A DNA stretch of 64,000 nt from Moniliella sp. 'wahieum'. Its lineage: Eukaryota. This document shows, one piece after another, positions 11,116 to 55,134 of this stretch. Under the pieces are notes generated by a model. The model worked only from the letters and a program-made list of their open reading frames with translations. It searched no databases and had not been told where the DNA came from. The stretch's first letter is position 1; the number at the start of each line of letters is the position of its first letter. Made by a program: the position numbers and the translations under genes. The stretch lies in assembly GCA_003971905.1 (NCBI GenBank), contig RSEE01000017.1, positions 248,001-312,000 of the forward strand, given 5' to 3'.

Positions 11116-13651
<2,536 letters not shown>

Positions 13652-23408: not shown

Positions 23409-23842
23409 TGTCACAGTCGGGGCTATGGCGAGGGAGAGTATGTTGGGACCCGCGGTCCCGTACGTAGGCCAAGGCGCTTTAACGTTAACACCATTTGCCC
23501 CTTATTATTATTTAACCTCCGAAGCCTCCACGTGTATACTCAGGTTTGTTGAACCCCTGTCTCCTCTAGTGTGTGGCATAAGACTTAGACCTACCGTCCA
23601 CCACCGCAATTGCATCGCTCTACATTTCCAGAGGTTCATCACGCAACCCCTTGGGTCCCCCCGGTCTTAGATCTTACAGAGCAGAGTCGAGACTAGGTCG
23701 AGGGATGAATCAATCATTCGTGGGCAAGAAGCATGAGCAGATGACATGGTGCGAAGGGGGAGAACAGTAATGAAAGAGCGAGACGCCGCTCGGGACGAAG
23801 AAATTGGAAATGGGAGCGAGATCAGCCAAACTATTATATGAC
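23409..23842 (-). mobile_element. Diverged solo LTR of family A (same family as the 43692-47442 element), split by a nested insertion
   Basis: 23409-23437 matches the reverse complement of the LTR's last 29 nt at 28/29 positions. About 23679-23842 matches the rest (e.g. GACGAAGAAATTGGAAATGGGAGCGAGATCAGCCAAACTAT). Confidence 0.9.
23441..23678 (+). mobile_element. Solo LTR of family B nested inside the family-A solo LTR
   Basis: TGT...ACA termini flanked by GAGTA/GAGCA (5-bp TSD with one mismatch). Shares blocks with 42257-42604 in reverse orientation. Confidence 0.8.
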
Positions 23843-25873
23843 CCCGCGCCAGGCACATCTTGCACACCGCATCGGGCCCTGGGTGGGGGATACACTGTGT
23901 GATCCATATGCCCCTATGATGGCGGAAAAGTCTATTAGGACAGAGAGGATCCTTAACTGCAGTAGAGGATGATGGTCATCGATCACAGATGGTCGCGCGT
24001 TTTAAAATTTACCCCAAGCGCTTGGGTGCACACCATCCATGTAACCCTAACCTCGTCTCCCCTGCACGGGGGCAGTAGCACATAACGCATGGCGCCGACC
24101 ACCTATAAAACACGCTATAGCGGACCAAATTGGTGCAAGACCTAAGGCGAAACGCGGAACGGCGATGCATCGGCATCGCTCTTGGCAAGGAGTAGTACAC
24201 TACATTAGTATGCACCTTAGGTCCTCTCTCAGCCGGGGAGACGTACCAGGTGAGAGTGCCAACACCACAGTGTTTTTTGCTTATACTCTCCGAGAGTAGT
24301 GTCGTGTCATTATATTTTGCTGTGTGCTTTTCGCAGATAGAGCAGGGGGGATCCCACACCAGAAAAGAAACTTATTCACAGAAGCCACAAGCATGCTCAT
24401 CGACATCCCTCGGTCAACTGACACACGTATGTGAACGAGATGCATTACATTAGCATACGCAGTCGCCTCCCTCAGCCCAAACGGACACACATCTCTGAGT
24501 CGTGAGATACGAGATCCCTTGGTGAATTGAGGGACAACTCAAGGAAGGTTCGTGCTTGAGATGGTTAGTGGAATCCGAACAGAGCGATAGCAAAAAGGAG
24601 TGGCGTATCGGCATGTATATAGCAGAGGAGGCTGCACGTGTGGCAAGGCTGCATATTCACCGTCGGCTTGGGCACAAGAACACAATAGGAGGAACGTTTC
24701 TGAAGCCTCTCCGGGACTTAGAGACGTAGAGAGGCAGCGAAGAACAAACACTGAGAGAGCTGGGACCGGGCAGAGACGATATTCGGCTGCTGGTGAAGAG
24801 AAACCCAGACACAACAATAAGACTGTTGGGACTGAACTCGACGTGGCCAAAGGTGAACTCACCCGAGTTGACTGATGGAAAGCTGAGAACGGGAGGACGG
24901 AAGACGAGATGGTAATCAAGTGGAGAAGATGTTGCCTGTATTGGACTAATTGGCTGGAAACCGACAGTAATGAATAGGAGAGGCAGAAGGGGACGGAGAT
25001 GGAACATGGGAAAAGACCCCTAACCGCTACCAACCAACAGGGTTACAGGCCAATAGATATGAAAGGGCAATCAGGCGCAAGAGGGGTGTAGAAATGGAGA
25101 CACAGAAACAATGGTTTGACTGCCAAAGGCGCAACAGAGAATGATAGAGGTAAGCGGGGACGCGGCGACAATTGCCGCAAGTAGGATACCACCGACTTGG
25201 TGGCCTCTCATTGGGGCCACCGCCTTCACCTTGAGCACGAGGTGACTATTGTCGCATGGATGCGTGGCCACTCGGGCCACCGTACCAGCAACAATCAAAA
25301 CCTTGGTTGGACTTTGAGAGCGCAATCTACTGGGCATGGGTAGAGGAATTAAGGCGACCCTACTAGCTTGGATCCGACCATCTCAGATCCGACACGTCCT
25401 GTAACATCCCTTCTCTCTTCTCACTTTTGATGAAGCAGGTATAACATCTCTTTTGTTGATGGTATGTGCCCTCGAAGTCCGTCCGCTGGGCTTATTGTAC
25501 AAGAAGCAATTCAGAGCCATTTCCCTTTTCGCTCTCTGACTGCTTGTTGTGGTGGGTGCTGTGGCTTGTTGCTGTGAAAAGATGTGGATGCGGGGCAGCA
25601 GCGGGGCGGCGGGGCGTCTTAGCTAAGCACGCCCGCCCCCCCGCCACCTTGGCAGGAGGCAGACATGCCAGCCAGCTGAATGCGCCCCGGCGCGCTCCAT
25701 TGTTGGCAGTCACATGTGATCTGCGTGTGACCACACGTCACACGGCCTGTCGCCGGCACAGCGGCCTGCTGCTGCTGCGCTCCAGGCGGCCTTCGCTTCG
25801 GCGCCTCCCTCCACCTCCCTCCGCGCCCCCTCCAGCAGCACCGCCGCCGCCCGCCGCCCCTCCCCTCGCCGCC

Positions 25874-39087: not shown

Positions 39088-40605
39088 TTAGTTGGCCTCC
39101 ACGGCCGGCGCATCGGCCTTGGGTGCCTCGGCTGCAGGCTCGACAGGCTTGGCCTCCTCAACAGGCTTGGCCTCCTCAACAGGCTTGGCCTCTTCGACAG
39201 GCTTGGCCTCTTCGACAGGCTTGGCCTCCTCAGCAGCCTTGGCCTCCTCAGCAGCCTTGGCCTCCTCAGCAGCCTTGGCTTCCTCGACAGGCTTGCTCTC
39301 CTCGACCTTCTTGGGCGCCTCTGCCTTAGCCTTTGGCTTCACAGCTTCAGCTTTGGGCTCCTCTGGCACGACGGAGGGTTGTGTGTCTTCTTGTCACCGT
39401 GAAACTTGTCAAAGAGCTTGCCCAGTTTCAGGCCCTTCAGGCTCAGACGACGGCCGTGCTTCGGCTTCTCCGCTGGCTTGGGCTCTTCCTTGGGCTTGGA
39501 CACTTCCTTAGGCTTTTGCGCAGTCTTGGGGACCTCCTTAGCCTTGGGGGCAGGCTCCTCAGTCTTGGCCTCCACTTTGGGGGCCTCGTCGACCTTGGCT
39601 TCTTCAGCCTTGGGTTCCTCAGCCTTGGGCTCTTCCGCCTTGGGCTCCTCAACCTTGGGCTCCTCAACCTTGGGCTCCTCAGCCTTGGGCTCCTCAGCCT
39701 TGGGCTCCTCAGCCTTGGGCTCCTCAGCCTTGGGCTCCTCAGCGGGCACGGCCTCTACCTTGGGAGGTTCTTCCACACAGCACCCCAGTAGGTTTGGCCG
39801 CTTCAGCCGCAGGTTCCTCAGCGGGCGTGGCCTTCGGAGCGGCAACCTCCTCAGGCTTGGCATCTTCCTTAGGTGCCTTCTCCGTGGCGGCAGCTTCCTT
39901 GGGCTCCACCTTCTTGGGCGCCTCCTTCTTGGGCGACTCCTTCTTGGGGGTCTCCTTCTTTCTTGCCAATGGTGAACACACGCTGGATGAAAGAAGTACG
40001 CTTCTCCTTCTTAGTCTGCATGATATGTGGTGTCAGTATCGGTAGTCCGGGATAAGTTGGGGGATATGTACCTGGGCAGGGGCAGGAGCGAGCTTCTCTC
40101 CTTCTTAGGAGCCTCCTCCTTCTTGGGAGCCTCCTCCTTCTTAGGCTCCTCAGTGGCTTCCTCCTTGGCCTCCTCCTTGGCTTCCTCCTTGGCCTCCTCC
40201 TTGGCCTCCTCCTTGGGGGCAGGTGTCTCCGTGGCGGAGGCTTCAGCAGGGACCTCCTCGGGCTTGGTAACCTGCAGCGGGAGACTCCTCAGCTTTAGCC
40301 TCCTCCTTCACGGCAGGCTCCTCAACTTTAGGCTCCTCAGCTTTGGGCTCCTCCTTGACGGGGGCCTCTTCTGTCTTGGGCTCCTCAGTGGGGGGCGCAA
40401 ACGTAGGCTCAACAGCATTGGGGTCGATAGGCTCGACGGCAGTAGTCACCTCAGGGGCAGGAGCAGCAGCCTCTACTTGCTGCGGGCAAGGGGGAATGGG
40501 TTAGCGATAAGGCGCAGAGCGGGGAGCTGCGGAGGCGCGGATGCTCACAGCAGCGACAGGCTCGGCCTTAGGGGCCTCGACGGCGGGAGCAGTGGTGTCA
40601 GCCAT
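39088..40605 (-). CDS. Disordered Glu/Pro/Lys/Ala repeat protein (EEPKA and EEAKPV repeats, RRLS motif)
   Basis: ATG at 40605 and introns at about 40548-40480 and 40072-39963. Codon-phased 15- and 18-nt tandem repeats; KHGRRLSLKGLKLGKLF. Confidence 0.8.
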
Positions 40606-42900: not shown

Positions 42901-43691
42901 GCTCGGCTCGGATCCACCAACAACTAGCCCAAGCCCGAGACTATCGTGGGTCGTCCTACCATCGTCTCCTAAGGGATCGTATTCCACCAAACTGGGTGAG
43001 TTCCCTCTATCGCGGGGCCCGCCCGTGACCGGGATCCCAACACTTTCTTTTCATCATTGTGGTATTTGCGCGGGGGAACTGAATACAGGACACTCTCCGA
43101 TGAGCACTCTACAAGAGAAGTCGCCAATTGATTGGTCACGGCGAGCGGGAACGATGTTGGCAAGTGACAAGCCGAAGAGCGATGGTGGGGAGTGACAGGA
43201 CACCGACTGTGCAAAGAAGGAAGAGGACAGGAAATGAGCGTCCCTGAAGAGCAACTGCACCAGCCTATTACAGGCAAGCTATCACTCTCCCACGGCACGA
43301 CAGTGGCTCTTCCCATCTCCTGTTCACCATCTCCCAACAGCTCGCATCCGCATTTACCTTGTCCAAGATGATCTCGATGATTGCCACTCTTTTGGTACTC
43401 CTTTTAATTATCTTTTGTTTTTGATGCCCTTTCGAACCCTCCCATTTAATGACGAGAGAGCGTGTATAGACGCATCTCTCGCTTACTACTTCAGATTAAT
43501 TATACACAGAGCGCGAAAAAGGGCGCCCACCATCCTCCGCCAGGCGGCCAAGCGTGATACAGGGAACCACCAACTGAATGCCAAAGGACTCTGCCGGTGG
43601 TGGCAGTAGCACGGGTGGTCATTTAGGGCAGAAGGAGTCTGGTTGGTGCACAATCTACAGAGGAAGCACCGAGTGGTCTGCGTAGAGATAC

Positions 43692-43872
43692 TGTCATAGT
43701 TTGGCTGATCTCGCTCCCATTTCCAATTTCTTCGTCTCGAGCGTCTCGCTCCTTCCCTGTTCCTTCCACTTCGCACCATGTCCTCTGTTCTTGCTTCTTC
43801 CCCACGAACGATTGCTACACCCCTTGGCCTAGTCTGATCCTGGTCTCCCTCGCCTTAGCCCCGACTGTGACA
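43692..43872 (+). repeat. 5' LTR (181 bp), family A
   Basis: Differs from the 3' LTR only by five single-C run-length differences. Confidence 0.97.
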
Positions 43873-43913
43873 TTATCGTTCGTCTAACCGTCAACAGGCG
43901 AACCCGACCAGAG

Positions 43914-45200
43914 ATGTCCTCGATCCACGACAACCCCCTGACCCCAGTAACCCTAGCGCGCCGCAACCCATCGCGCGGCGCGGCCCGATCCGACCCCCGT
44001 TCGACCCCCCCTCTGACGCTCCGTTCGACGACGATGGCCCGGAGTGGTTCCACCCGGCTGGCCCCTCTGGACCCCCCCATGCAGCTCCGTCTGTTGCGCC
44101 CGCGCCCCCGGGGTATACATTGCCTGCCTCCGACCTGTCCGGGCTGGGCCTCGAGGCCGCTCAGCGCCGGGTCGATGAGGCCCGCAGAATGCGCCAGCTT
44201 CTGTTGATGGAGGCCCGGGAAAATCAGGCCTACCTTGCAGCCCAGGAGGACCAGCACCGCGCTTTCGAGGCTGAGCAAGAGGCGAAGCGCCGTGAGCACC
44301 GCCTCCGTCAGCGGCGGGAGGAGGCGGCGCTCGCCGCGGAAGAGGCCCGGTTGGCCGCCTCGGTCCGGGAGGCTCAGACTGGCGTGGCGTCCTCGGCCCC
44401 CGCCCCCGCTCCCGCCCCTGGGCCTTATGGTGATCTGACCGCCATCCCGAACAAGGCGTCGGAAGAGCCGAAGATGTTCGAGCCCGCTCGTTTCCACCCG
44501 TCGTCTGGTGCGAACCCCACATCTCGTGACCGGGTCCAGGCCCAGCACGTCGTCACCTCCTTCGAGATTTACGCGCGCGTCGCCCTCACGCATATGGGCG
44601 CGGCGGCATGGATTGACCGCTTCATGGGCCTGCTGCAGGGGGAGGCCCTCACTTGGGTCGAGCAGTTCGGTTCGGAGGTGGCCCTCCCCCTGGAGGCGCG
44701 CACCACACCCGCCCTCCAGTCTTGGCCTGCGTTTCACGCAGCTTTCCTGGAGCAGTGGGGCGAGCGCAACCCGGCGCTGAAGGCGTTTGAGGAGTTTGGT
44801 CGTCTTCGGCAGACGGGATCTGCCGCGGACTATTCCGCTACGTTCACGTTTCTGCTGCGTCGCTGGAACCCAACGCGTCGGATGAGGACCGCTACTATTG
44901 CTTTCTGTACGGCTTGAAGCCGCGGGTGCGTGACGCAATCGCCTCCCGCGGCGAGTCGGCTCACTTGGGACGGATCAGTTTCGAACAACTGCGCACAGCG
45001 GCCATTGACATCGACTAATCGCAATCGCTGGGCGCTCATGGTACCGCAATCTCCCCGGGATCGGGCGGCAATCATTGGTTTCGGCCCTCGTCGCCCGAAG
45101 CGGAGCCCATGGACCTCAGCGCAGTCACCGCCACCGCTGAAGCGGCGCCCGGCGCACCGAGCGCCGCGCTCAAGGTGCAGTGCCGTGATCACCATATGCC
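43914..45200 (+). CDS. Retrotransposon Gag (capsid); frameshifted, no intact CCHC knuckle seen
   Basis: LLQGEALTW, SWPAFHAAFLEQW, FGRLRQTGSAADYSATF, FLYGLKPRVRDAI and EPMDLS. Confidence 0.85.
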
Positions 45201-45223
45201 TTCCACGACTGTACCCCGGCCAC

Positions 45224-45540
45224 AGCCCCAACTCCCGCCCAAGCCCCAACTCCCGCCCAAGCCCCAACTCCCGCCCAAGCCCCAAGCCCAGCCCAAGCCC
45301 CAAGCCCCAAGCCCAGCCCAAGCCCCAAGCCCAGCCCAGCCCAACTCCCGCCCAAGCCCCAACTCCCGCCCAAGCCCCACCCAGCCCCAGCCCCAAGACC
45401 AGCCCAAGCACCAAGACCAGCCCCAGCCGCAAGACCAGCCCCAGCCGCAAGACCAGCCCAAGCACCAAGACCAGCCCCAGCCCCAAGACCAGCCCCAGCA
45501 CCCAGACCAGCCCAAGACCAAGACTACGCACCAGCACCAG
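45224..45540 (+). repeat. Coding-phase 18-bp tandem repeats (CCCAACTCCCGCCCAAGC and CAAGACCAGCCCMAGC variants) encoding a Pro/Gln or Pro/Ser linker
   Basis: Read directly. It occupies the position where PR-RT-RH would normally lie. Confidence 0.9.
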
Positions 45541-45679
45541 CACTCGCCCGGGCCCCGGCCCAAGTCCACCTCCTCATCTAACCCCATCTCGCCCCCCTCT
45601 GTCAACTCGATTCCTTTTCCCTCCTCGGTTCCCTCCCGGCCCGCTGGCGCGGCACCTCAAGTACTGGCGGAGCCCATGT

Positions 45680-47260
45680 CCGAACGTTCTGCGCGCCGCC
45701 CTCAAGCTCATGTCGGCGGACCCCGATACACCGGTGGTGGAGCGAGTGTCTGCCGACGAGACTCGACAGCGCATCCGCCAACTCGTGCCTCGTGACCCTC
45801 GTTGGTCCCTTGCTACGGCTCCAAGCCCACCTCGCCATGCTTTGACGGTCCGCGACGGTCTTTTGTGGCACGGAAACCAGGTCTACGTCCCCGGCGACCG
45901 GCCGATCCGCGCTGCCATTCTCCACCAAGCCCACGACTCGGCATTGGCGGGCCATGAAGGGCGCGACAAGACGTTGGCCCGTGTCCGCGCTCAATTGGTG
46001 GCCCGCCTGTCAGCCGACGTGTGGGCCTACGTGCGCTCGTGCGACCGCTGCCAACGGACCAAAGCGCCTTGCCACCAACCCGCCGGACCCCTTCAGCCCC
46101 TTTCCCCTCCCCAAGGCCCGTGGACCCCTTGACGATGGACCACATTACCAGCTTCCCCGATCCAATGGTTACGACGCGATTCTGGTGGTGGTGGATCGTT
46201 GTACCAAAATGGGTCACTTCATTCCCGCCCACACGACGGACACTGCGCCCCAGCTCGCACGCCAGTTTGTACACCATGTCTTTCGCTACCATGGCCTTCC
46301 CCGGGATGTGGTAAGTGATCGGGGACCGACCTTCACAAGCCACTTCTGGCAAGCCTTGTGTGCCGACTTGGGCATCAAGTCGAGCCTCAGCACCACGTCC
46401 CACCCCCAGACGGACGGCCAGACTGAGCGACTCAACCAGATCCTCGAACAGTACCTCCGCTGCTACCTCGACGAGCAGCAGTCCAACTGGTTCGACCTCC
46501 TCCCCACGGCCGAATTCGCCTACAACTCGTCCTCCCACTCAAGCACCCACCAGTCCCCCTTTGTCCTCACCTATGGTTACTCTCCCCGGGGGGAGTTGGA
46601 GCCCTCCACTTCGCCCGTGCCCGATGCTGCGCCATATTTGGAGGACTTGCGCTCGGCCCAGGCGGTGGCCCGCCGCACGCTCGCCGCGGCCCAGGACCGC
46701 TACAAGCATTATGCCGATCAGCAGCGCACCGAGGCGGCTTCCTTCACTGCTGGCCAGCCTGTCTTGGTCCGTCGGGACGGCTATGTGCCCAGCCAGCGGC
46801 CTTCTGACGGCCCCGACTATCGCTACCTCGCGGCCCCTTCCCCATTGTCCGCGCCGTGGGCCGCGCCGCGTACCAGGTCCGCCTCCCCGACTACCTACAC
46901 CTCCATGACGTGTTCCATGTGTCCCGCTTGCGAGCCTACACCCTTGGTGACGTGGTCCCTGCCCGCTTGATCGAGCCCCCGCCTCCTCTCCCCGAGTATG
47001 CTGATGATGGTGAGGTTCATCACGAGGTCGAACATGTTCTCGACTCTCGCCGCAAGGGTCGTGGTGGCCGCATTGAGTACTTTGTTCACCTCCGGGGCTA
47101 TCCTGTCCACGAGAGGGAGTGGGTACCCGCTGCGGACATGTCTCATGACGCCGAGCCAGTGGTCCGTTTCCACGCCCTCTACCCGATAAGCCTGTCTCCC
47201 ATGCCCGCCGACTCGCCCTCTCTCGCCTCCGTCGCCGCCCGGGAGATGAGGTCTGAAAGG
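45680..47260 (+). CDS. Integrase (HHCC + DDE core) and chromodomain; frameshifted
   Basis: AHDSALAGHEG...CDRCQR; LTMD, VVSDRGPTFTS and HPQTDGQTERLNQILEQYLR; LHDVFHVSRL; HEVEHVLDSRRKG...EYFVHLRGYPVHEREWVP. Confidence 0.93.
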
Positions 47261-47266
47261 GGGCAA

Positions 47267-47442
47267 TGTCATAGTTTGGCTGATCTCGCTCCCATTTCCA
47301 ATTTCTTCGTCTCGAGCGTCTCGCTCTTCCCTGTTCCTTCCACTTCGCACCATGTCCTCTGTTCTTGCTTCTTCCCACGAACGATTGCTACACCCTTGGC
47401 CTAGTCTGATCTGGTCTCCTCGCCTTAGCCCCGACTGTGACA
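47267..47442 (+). repeat. 3' LTR (176 bp), family A
   Basis: Direct repeat of 43692-43872. Confidence 0.97.
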
Positions 47443-49180
47443 GATACGCTCTACATTTTAATTTTCAAGTGGCGGCGATAGAGTATTACGTACATCTCTG
47501 GAATGCAATTTCAAAGATCTCGTTCTGCGGTCCGGTTAGAGTTTATCTGCAGGCTACAAGTACAGGCGTCCGACGTGAGTTTCTGGCCCACCACATCGCT
47601 CGGCTACGTTGTTGACCGCCGCCGGCATGCGCTCGCTCGCCGCCTCCACAGGCCATGCAGGGTTGGACGCTGCGCTGATGGTCTGGGATATGGTCCAATG
47701 CTGCCTACAGAAACACTGCCGCCTCTCCTTGTCATTCTCCCTCTCCAATGTGCCGCCGGCGGACATCGTGCGCCTCCGCCATGCCATGTCCGTCTGGTCC
47801 ATCGATGCGCACCAGTGGGATTCTCGGGGCACCGAGCTTCAACCGGTGCTTGATCTGGCAGTCGCATCTTGCCCATGATGCCAGGGCTGGTATTGCCTCT
47901 CGCTGGGCCCAAGGTGACGCGACGCGTATCCTTGTGGTCAGTGCCCCGCCCAGTTTGGACGCATTTACTCTGCCCGACGAGCAGGGTCCATCGAGCTTGG
48001 CCTGGCTGCTCTCTTCTGCTCCGCTCCAACTTTCCAAGGCTGGTGAGCAGGTCCTGATTGTGCTTCTTGATGGGCAACTTACCTCCCTGCGTCGCCAGCG
48101 GATCTGTATCCCGTACCTGCCCCCCTTCCTTGTTCAGCCCCGCCTCCCCTTTACAGTCAATGGGTGCAGTGACTGTCGTAGGCGCCTTCCAGGACGGGTC
48201 CTACTCGTTTAAATCTCCTGCACGCTCCATGCTCATGCCTACTCCACCCAATGAAGTGCGAGCGCTTCCATCCGCGGGAGGACAAAAGCGGAAACGCATT
48301 GCTTCTGAGATCGAGGAGACGGCGGACGACTCGGTTCTCGCATGGGGCAGGAAAAGATTGCCCCCTGCTCCCAGGAGATCCCTGCATTCTCACTTCTCAC
48401 TCCCCGTGGCTCGGGCACCCGCCTTCATCACCCTCGTTCCCGGCATCGTTCTCATACCTCCCGCCTCCGCCTCAGTCGTAATCATAGAAGGTTCCCATTC
48501 CTCCTTTCATTTTGCCTGCCAGATCAGCAGGCTGTATGCTCATCGCCATTCTCGTTTTGTCCTATGCATTCTCGGCCTTAATCTCATGCGCGTAAGGACC
48601 AACTGGCATCCATGCATGTCCCTCTTCCGTGATAGATGCTTGTAAGCAGCCAATAAGGCTAGCACTTTGTCCTTCCCGCTTTCGTTACACTGGGGGCTTT
48701 TACTCCTTCTTTGCTGTTGTGGCTTTGTTTCGCACTTCTTGCGTTTTTATTCCTTGGCCGTTGTCTGCGCTTCTTTTTAGACGTTGTGGCGCAAGTGTTA
48801 AAGCATGCCTACGGGTTGGATAAACCGGATGTAGAGCCAGTGAGTACGGATGAGCGAAGAGAGGGACATATGAGTGGTGAGCTATCTCCAAAGAGGGTCT
48901 GCCGAAGGTTCCTTCCAGGTTCAAGTAAAGTATCAATCCCACGTGCAGATGTGATGATTCGGTATGCAATGCGCGGGATAGGGACCACCTCTCTAGGCTC
49001 TGGCAAGTAGTAATGCCAAAGGAAGGAGGGGAGAAATCCACCAGTGCTTCCCCTGCCCCTAGAGCGGACCCCAGCGGCTAGGTTGCGGTAGTATGGGAGG
49101 GGGGGGGGGGGAATGCGAACAAAGACATGATACAATGGAGGAAAACGAGAGAGTAAAGCGGAGGGAAAGGGGCGACGCGC

Positions 49181-50755: not shown

Positions 50756-55134
<4,379 letters not shown>

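Follow-up and report, generated by a model that had tools for sequence, protein, structure and literature searches.

A non-autonomous, probably internally deleted chromovirus that retains gag and a chromodomain integrase in Moniliella sp. 'wahieum'

In a 64,000-nucleotide stretch of the draft genome of Moniliella sp. 'wahieum' (assembly GCA_003971905.1, contig RSEE01000017.1, positions 248,001 to 312,000; the whole stretch is hereafter called the window), we analyzed a long terminal repeat (LTR) retrotransposon of 3,751 bp at positions 43692-47442, flanked at both ends by the 5-bp target-site duplication GATAC. It carries gag, a Pro/Gln-rich linker and a complete chromodomain integrase, and lacks protease, reverse transcriptase (RT) and RNase H. 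From its sequence features and those of its relatives, we consider it rather likely that this copy descends by internal deletion from a self-priming Ty3/gypsy chromovirus of a GC-rich fungus, is non-autonomous, and would have been mobilised by full-length relatives. An earlier interpretation drawn from the bare letters (the sequence-only reading) had placed an LTR element with a perfect 5-bp duplication at exactly these boundaries and had seen in it a freshly inserted representative of a possible new class of parasite that supplies its own capsid and integrase; what was seen there holds up, and the reading built on it is borne out in part.

Structure and coding content of the element

A Pfam search of the open reading frames (ORFs) of the element recovered Retrotrans_gag, Integrase_H2C2, rve, SH3_Tf2-1 and Chromo, in agreement with the initial view that only Gag and an integrase with chromodomain are encoded. 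The Retrotrans_gag match (44627-44869, E 6.9e-05) reaches 23.4 bits, slightly below the cut-off of 24.1 bits, because a frame break splits the domain. The capsid part of gag has ten relatives among 1.84 billion representative proteins (best E 3.4e-12), eight of which belong to Retrotrans_gag/Ty3_capsid, and a near-length search of the protein collection with gag gave no candidate at E<=0.001, probably owing to low-complexity words. The Chromo match exceeds its cut-off and lies after rve and SH3_Tf2-1, an arrangement that is a feature of Ty3/gypsy chromoviruses, and among solved structures the integrase core comes nearest to the Ty3 Gag-Pol polyprotein (7q5b, E 3.8e-34).

No match to RVT, RNase H, aspartic protease or zf-CCHC was found at Pfam E<=5 in the 27 forward internal ORFs of at least 25 amino acids, an outcome that the sequence-only reading had predicted for the three enzymes, and the reverse-strand ORFs of at least 110 amino acids gave nothing at 1e-05. 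Roughly 0.5 kb separates the EPMDL motif of gag (about 45100) from the start of Pol homology at 45649; this stretch contains the Pro/Gln tandem repeat that had been noticed there (18 bp, 16.1 copies, 45224-45516) and leaves no room for protease, RT and RNase H, as had been proposed. The element cannot copy itself. Homology to gag and integrase occupies most of the 3.4-kb internal region, which separates the element from LARD and TRIM elements, recognized by their lack of coding capacity, and the presence of four integrase domains separates it from TR-GAG elements, which have gag only and no pol domains.

The element shows the hallmarks of an LTR retrotransposon, namely terminal direct repeats with TG...CA ends, a short target-site duplication, a candidate primer site and a polypurine tract, and, judged from their letters, both LTRs, the primer site and the polypurine tract, which are the cis parts for copying, are all intact. 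The alignment of the two LTRs contains no substitution and five one-base gaps, each of them a C missing from a run of Cs in the 3' LTR, whereas a contig from X1, a public metagenome run stored as contigs and derived from another sample than this genome, agrees with the 5' LTR without a gap. The five missing Cs are probably assembly errors. The LTRs are thus free of substitutions, as had been stated, but not identical as assembled. The copy is read as young, but the inference of a very recent transposition draws on zero substitutions over just 176 aligned bases, which bound the age of the element only loosely.

By eye, the LTR is not followed by TGG, and a primer site of the tRNA type was rejected for this reason. 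The nine bases at 43875-43883 are the exact complement of the LTR at 43804-43812, a length of complementarity reached in 6 of 5000 shuffles of the LTR, and the two stretches pair with each other in the predicted minimum-energy fold (fold z-score -0.67). Because of this LTR complement and the missing TGG, we read 43875-43883 as a candidate site for self-priming. Elsewhere in the window, a diverged LTR-like fragment on the minus strand (23678-23845, 83-85% identical to the LTR of the element) includes the 9-nt self-priming stretch with one mismatch, and is probably a solo LTR or a relic of a related, older family.

Table 1. Features of the element and its borders (window coordinates).
Feature	Position	Strand	Evidence
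Left target-site duplication, GATAC	43687..43691	.	Same 5 bases at 47443-47447
5' LTR, 181 bp, TG...CA ends	43692..43872	+	LTR alignment; gapless match to X1 contig
ACGAACGAT, 9 nt within the LTR, complementary to primer site; candidate transcript 5' end for self-priming	43804..43812	+	Shuffle test, minimum-energy fold
Candidate primer-binding site ATCGTTCGT, 2 nt 3' of the LTR, without TGG tRNA-type start	43875..43883	+	Complementarity, fold
gag from ATG 43914; frame breaks near 43933 and 44868; in-frame TAA 45016-45018	43914..45018	+	Pfam, ORFs, X1
gag tail with EPMDL (about 45100) and zinc-knuckle remnant CRDHH	45019..45195	+	Translation, X1
18-bp tandem repeat, 16.1 copies, Pro/Gln-rich linker, frame 1	45224..45516	+	Repeat analysis
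Right edge of putative deletion of protease, RT and RNase H	45634..45635	+	X1 contig, P0009/P0015, start of Pol homology
Integrase with N-terminal extension; frame breaks near 45693, 46127, 46147, 46829, 47181	45635..47256	+	Pfam, X1, relatives
Integrase_H2C2	45905-46066	+	Pfam E 1.9e-14
rve core	46143-46406	+	Pfam E 1.8e-10
SH3_Tf2-1	46832-46939	+	Pfam E 3e-11
Chromo PF00385	47024-47155	+	Pfam E 4.4e-07, 30.2 bits (cut-off 25.1)
Polypurine tract GAAAGGGGGCAA, adjoining the 3' LTR	47255..47266	+	Sequence
3' LTR, 176 bp, TG...CA ends	47267..47442	+	Alignment to 5' LTR
Right target-site duplication, GATAC	47443..47447	.	Matches left copy

Relatives in protein and metagenome collections

Among the 120 longer relatives of the integrase that were listed, 85 carry RVT (PF00078), and the six with gag (PF03732) all carry RVT as well, so that gag and integrase without RT are combined in none of the 120. 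Of the pol order that marks Ty3/gypsy chromoviruses (protease, RT, RNase H, integrase), this copy keeps only the integrase, whereas relatives with an integrase 45-63% identical to that of the element carry RVT and RNase H domains. The closest ones among the matches listed are P0009 and P0015, with 63% and 58% identity over the core; nothing in the protein collection exceeds 63% identity to the integrase among longer proteins or 52% among those of near length, and the element's own family is not represented in that collection. A metagenome scan returned no match for the combined pattern of LTR ends and primer site, and two contigs (L001 and L002) for an integrase motif, which are alike only over 30-47 bases around this motif.

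Much closer sequences were found when runs were searched with words of the element. A single run, X1, was listed as containing them, with 0.26 of the sampled words; no RNA run was listed as containing them, and no contig from runs X2 and X3 aligned to the element. Nineteen X1 contigs lie on the element (three with at least 99% identity, 15 with 95-99%, one with 90-95%) and none on its flanks. Eight of 21 X1 pieces were examined, and 40 of the 72 differences to the window were listed. One contig runs from the integrase end through the polypurine tract, a single LTR and the primer-binding site into gag (47091-47266 joined to 43692-44237, with 13 differing letters in 722 aligned). A de Bruijn assembler is expected to yield such a passage through a single LTR when multi-copy, tandem or one-LTR-circle forms are present.

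Edges and size of the deletion

The X1 contigs show, at the level of their letters, that a fuller relative of the element exists, as they continue at two places where the window does not. At the integrase end, Pol homology to full-length polyproteins begins at 45649, which corresponds to residue 662 of P0009 and lies just past its ADALSRR motif at residue 643. One of the X1 contigs agrees with the window from 45635 onwards, and the 30 letters that precede this point translate by eye as SRRPDLAEG, in the reading frame of the integrase extension and continuing into PRPAGAAPQVLAEPM; P0009 and P0015 carry ADALSRRCDLMKGG and ADALSRRSDLLEGG at the same position, as part of the motif ADALSRR(C/S)DL. 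Because an RNase H tail enters the integrase here in X1 and none does so in the window, we put the right-hand boundary of the deletion at 45634|45635, some nine codons beyond the RNase H tail of this 95-99% identical relative.

At the gag end, an X1 contig follows gag up to 45178 and then reads CFYCGSRDH by eye, the start of a CX2CX4H zinc knuckle. The window matches the tail of this knuckle again after a skip of 15 letters, with nine of the next ten letters agreeing (by eye). It seems that a 15-base loss within the knuckle removed five codons, FYCGS, and left CRDHH. Because the window rematches the X1 knuckle after this small loss, the left edge of the large deletion probably lies further on, where the Ser/Pro-rich linker ...NSIPFPSSVPS ends and, in relatives, protease begins. 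The 7-bp microhomology AAGGTGC (45172-45178) was weighed as an alternative left edge and set aside in favour of the 15-base knuckle loss, both readings being made by eye on 30 letters. Splicing was likewise rejected by eye as the source of the deletion, since no AG closes the X1 sequence ahead of 45635. Judged from P0009, the missing block comprises about 655 residues (~2 kb), which would imply a parent of about 5.7 kb.

Frame breaks and assembly quality

As assembled, the coding part of the element contains at least six frame changes (near 43933, 44868, 45693, 46127, 46147 and 46829) and one in-frame TAA. One- or two-base insertions or deletions in X1 at these six positions and at 47181 coincide exactly with the frame breaks of the window; at 43933 and 44868, X1 is longer by a single base. 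Protein motifs are also restored in X1: three letters added in X1 at 45994-46001 turn AQLVARL into AQLWWPRL (by eye), with the WWP found in P0009, and a C added at 47181 yields YPDKP and a stop at 47254, directly before the polypurine tract (by eye). Similar errors occur in conserved motifs of host genes, with two one-base frame errors within ~60 bases in a MYST acetyltransferase (MOZ_SAS core, about 11990-12090, minus strand) and one in an invariant motif of a SNF2 helicase (52650-52680, plus strand), and in both motifs there is no space for an intron. Single bases are dropped by the assembly in host genes too. Because the host motifs show like errors and the X1 indels coincide with those of the element, its frameshifts are not evidence of decay; most of its frame breaks would be one-base assembly errors, X1 being another sample.

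Once one-base errors are discounted, a single stop remains in 43914-47254, the TAA at 45016-45018, which is a substitution, unlike the usual error type of this assembly, and which lies upstream of the integrase. Behind it, gag tail and linker form an open frame over 45019-45693, which enters the integrase extension in the frame of X1. The suggestion that gag, linker and integrase might form a single frame is therefore borne out across the junction, but not for gag as a whole, since the TAA stands in front. It should be considered that at 67% GC, runs of 200-400 codons without a stop are present in each reading frame.

Selection on gag and integrase

The comparison with X1 was also used for the selection check that the sequence-only reading had called for, with pN/pS (non-synonymous against synonymous differences) calculated from 40 of the 72 window-X1 differences, in which both lineages are mixed. 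We counted 8 synonymous and 12 non-synonymous differences in gag (pN/pS 0.53), 3 and 6 in the integrase (pN/pS 0.65), and 1 and 5 in the gag N-terminus. None of these small and partial counts is distinguishable from neutral evolution, and all three are unlikely at an omega of 0.15 (P 0.005-0.03). The in-frame TAA, the apparently short knuckle and pN/pS values of about 0.5-0.65 argue against Gag and integrase genes that would be maintained by selection, and hence against the earlier idea that the element supplies its own capsid and targeting integrase.

Origin and mobilization of the element

We propose that one deletion of roughly 2 kb may have removed the region that opens with protease and closes some nine codons beyond the RNase H tail, retaining gag, the Pro/Gln linker and the whole chromodomain integrase. 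The element most likely arrived at its present site already in this deleted form; full-length relatives would presumably have provided the proteins for packaging, reverse transcription and integration of its RNA, with priming by pairing of the primer site with the 9-nt LTR stretch, as in Tf1. Its own gag and integrase would then be leftovers and not a kept toolkit.

Several observations weigh against this proposal. Neither a second copy of the element, which could have been a sister with the same junction, nor a full-length partner was found within the 64-kb window, and the short X1 contigs display two junctions that imply protease and RT, not protease and RT themselves. The D, D, E and H2C2 residues of the integrase are all present, so that a working integrase is possible as far as these residues tell, and the partial, lineage-mixing basis of the pN/pS values detracts from the argument for leftovers. 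In addition, another X1 contig carries 255 further letters joined to window sequence from 45172; the final 30 of these letters read DYPSHTLYFD by eye, and they have no match in the window even when 3 mismatches are allowed. The join could represent a second variant, a recombinant or a sign of another origin for the Pro/Gln stretch. We also considered that the Pro/Gln linker might be a captured foreign coding fragment.

Internal deletion is the commonest fate of LTR elements, and the copy studied here could be a one-off dead one, which lost its middle in place after a full-length insertion or through a template jump during synthesis of this very cDNA, with no spread and no helper relationship. 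We regard this as a possibility of some standing, if a lesser one. Only this copy was seen in the 64-kb window; the X1 relative shows undeleted junctions only, and none of the 8 of 21 X1 pieces examined spans 45178|45179 or bridges 45634|45635; and most fungal LTR elements have an incomplete pol, according to a published study (PMC3248453). Proponents of an assembly artefact would suppose that the real chromosome has the pol region and that it collapsed out of an error-rich assembly, given the poor single-base quality and a tandem repeat 118 bp from the junction; yet the errors observed are losses of one base and not of kilobases, and the junction lies outside the repeat, which leaves this explanation with very little credit.

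The deletion with later mobilization by relatives that we favour must also be set against more elaborate scenarios. It appears doubtful to us that the deleted form spreads as a lineage through several independent insertions and, by way of a working chromodomain integrase and perhaps a Gag-linker-IN fusion, steers its own integration, with a full-length partner providing just protease, RT and RNase H. Slightly more doubtful still is a semi-autonomous lineage under selection, which would provide its own capsid and chromodomain integrase, possibly as one Gag-linker-IN protein, and borrow protease, RT and RNase H. The integrase residues named above, the open frame of the gag tail and linker that joins the integrase extension in the frame of X1, and the single stop left in 43914-47254 are what such a lineage would be expected to show. 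However, that stop precedes the integrase, the zinc knuckle seemingly lacks FYCGS (by eye), and 6 non-synonymous among 9 integrase differences (pN/pS 0.65) are unlikely at omega 0.15 (P 0.03). Long open frames are moreover found in every frame at this GC content, an in-frame junction has a chance of 1/3, and gag with integrase but without RT occurs in 0 of the 120 listed relatives.

If true, a spreading lineage would constitute a semi-autonomous division of labour that we did not find described for fungal chromoviruses in a keyword search of open-access text. Should several insertions with a conserved integrase exist, the family would show for which retrotransposon proteins (capsid, targeting integrase) retention in cis benefits a parasite and which ones can be supplied by others. 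As it stands, the element is a tidy example of a pol-deleted chromovirus, and a warning that one-base assembly errors mimic gene decay.

Genomic context

The window consists of gene-dense, GC-rich eukaryotic DNA, in which we scanned 254 ORFs of at least 110 amino acids. Host genes recognized in it encode fibrillarin, DNA polymerase alpha subunit B, the MYST acetyltransferase, a RasGEF, the SNF2 helicase, ribosomal protein L11 and a metacaspase. A further ORF (39092-39508, plus strand) matches weakly the S. pombe DUF963 repeat (E 3.8e-07) and is probably a repetitive Ser/Thr-rich protein.

Comparison with known systems

In elements of the Tf1/sushi type, the 5' end of the transcript folds back onto the primer site and primes reverse transcription itself. 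The element described here would resemble these self-priming chromoviruses with a complementarity of 9 nt, its transcript start being only predicted and no RT being present for placement in a tree. The metagenome polyproteins P0009 and P0015 share the linker between RNase H and integrase (ADALSRR...AAPQVLLEP), but they are full-length in pol, with protease, RT, RNase H, integrase and chromodomain, and represent another family.

Among non-autonomous elements, close parallels are TR-GAG elements and the pair formed by RLG_Quinta, which keeps gag, and RLG_Cereba, on which it depends, the primer site and LTR ends being common to both (PMC11302176). As in these cases, we would have a shorter, gag-keeping element and a full-length partner that supplies the enzymes. 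Yet Quinta and TR-GAG elements are without integrase (PMC11302176), whereas our element keeps its integrase and is without protease, RT and RNase H; and where such a partner would be recognized by the same primer site, the same LTR ends and a conserved part of the LTR (PMC11302176), the partner is seen here only as junctions in contigs of another sample.

The study of fungal LTR elements finds that most have an incomplete pol and are missing at least one of integrase (INT), RT, RNase H (RH) and aspartic protease (AP) (PMC3248453). A survey of sugar beet lists 15 non-autonomous LTR families in which one or more decayed POL domains (RT, RH, INT or chromodomain) survive; GAG/PROT remnants are present as well in 8 of these families (PMC13570524). 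These families are likewise LTR elements with intact ends, target duplications and an incomplete pol; they differ in belonging to a plant and in consisting of decayed fragments, whereas the host here is a fungus and the integrase is complete in its four domains (PMC13570524). A described family with gag and a complete integrase and nothing else was not found in a keyword search of open-access text. The same survey argues that TRIM, LARD, TR-GAG and 'defective' elements form a continuum and not discrete types (PMC13570524). The proposal of a distinct parasitic class accordingly gives way to that of a simple internal deletion of a chromovirus, families with remnants of GAG and of INT or chromodomain being already in print (PMC13570524), and the pol-deleted element of Moniliella sp. 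'wahieum' is an ordinary kind of defective element rather than a new class of parasite.

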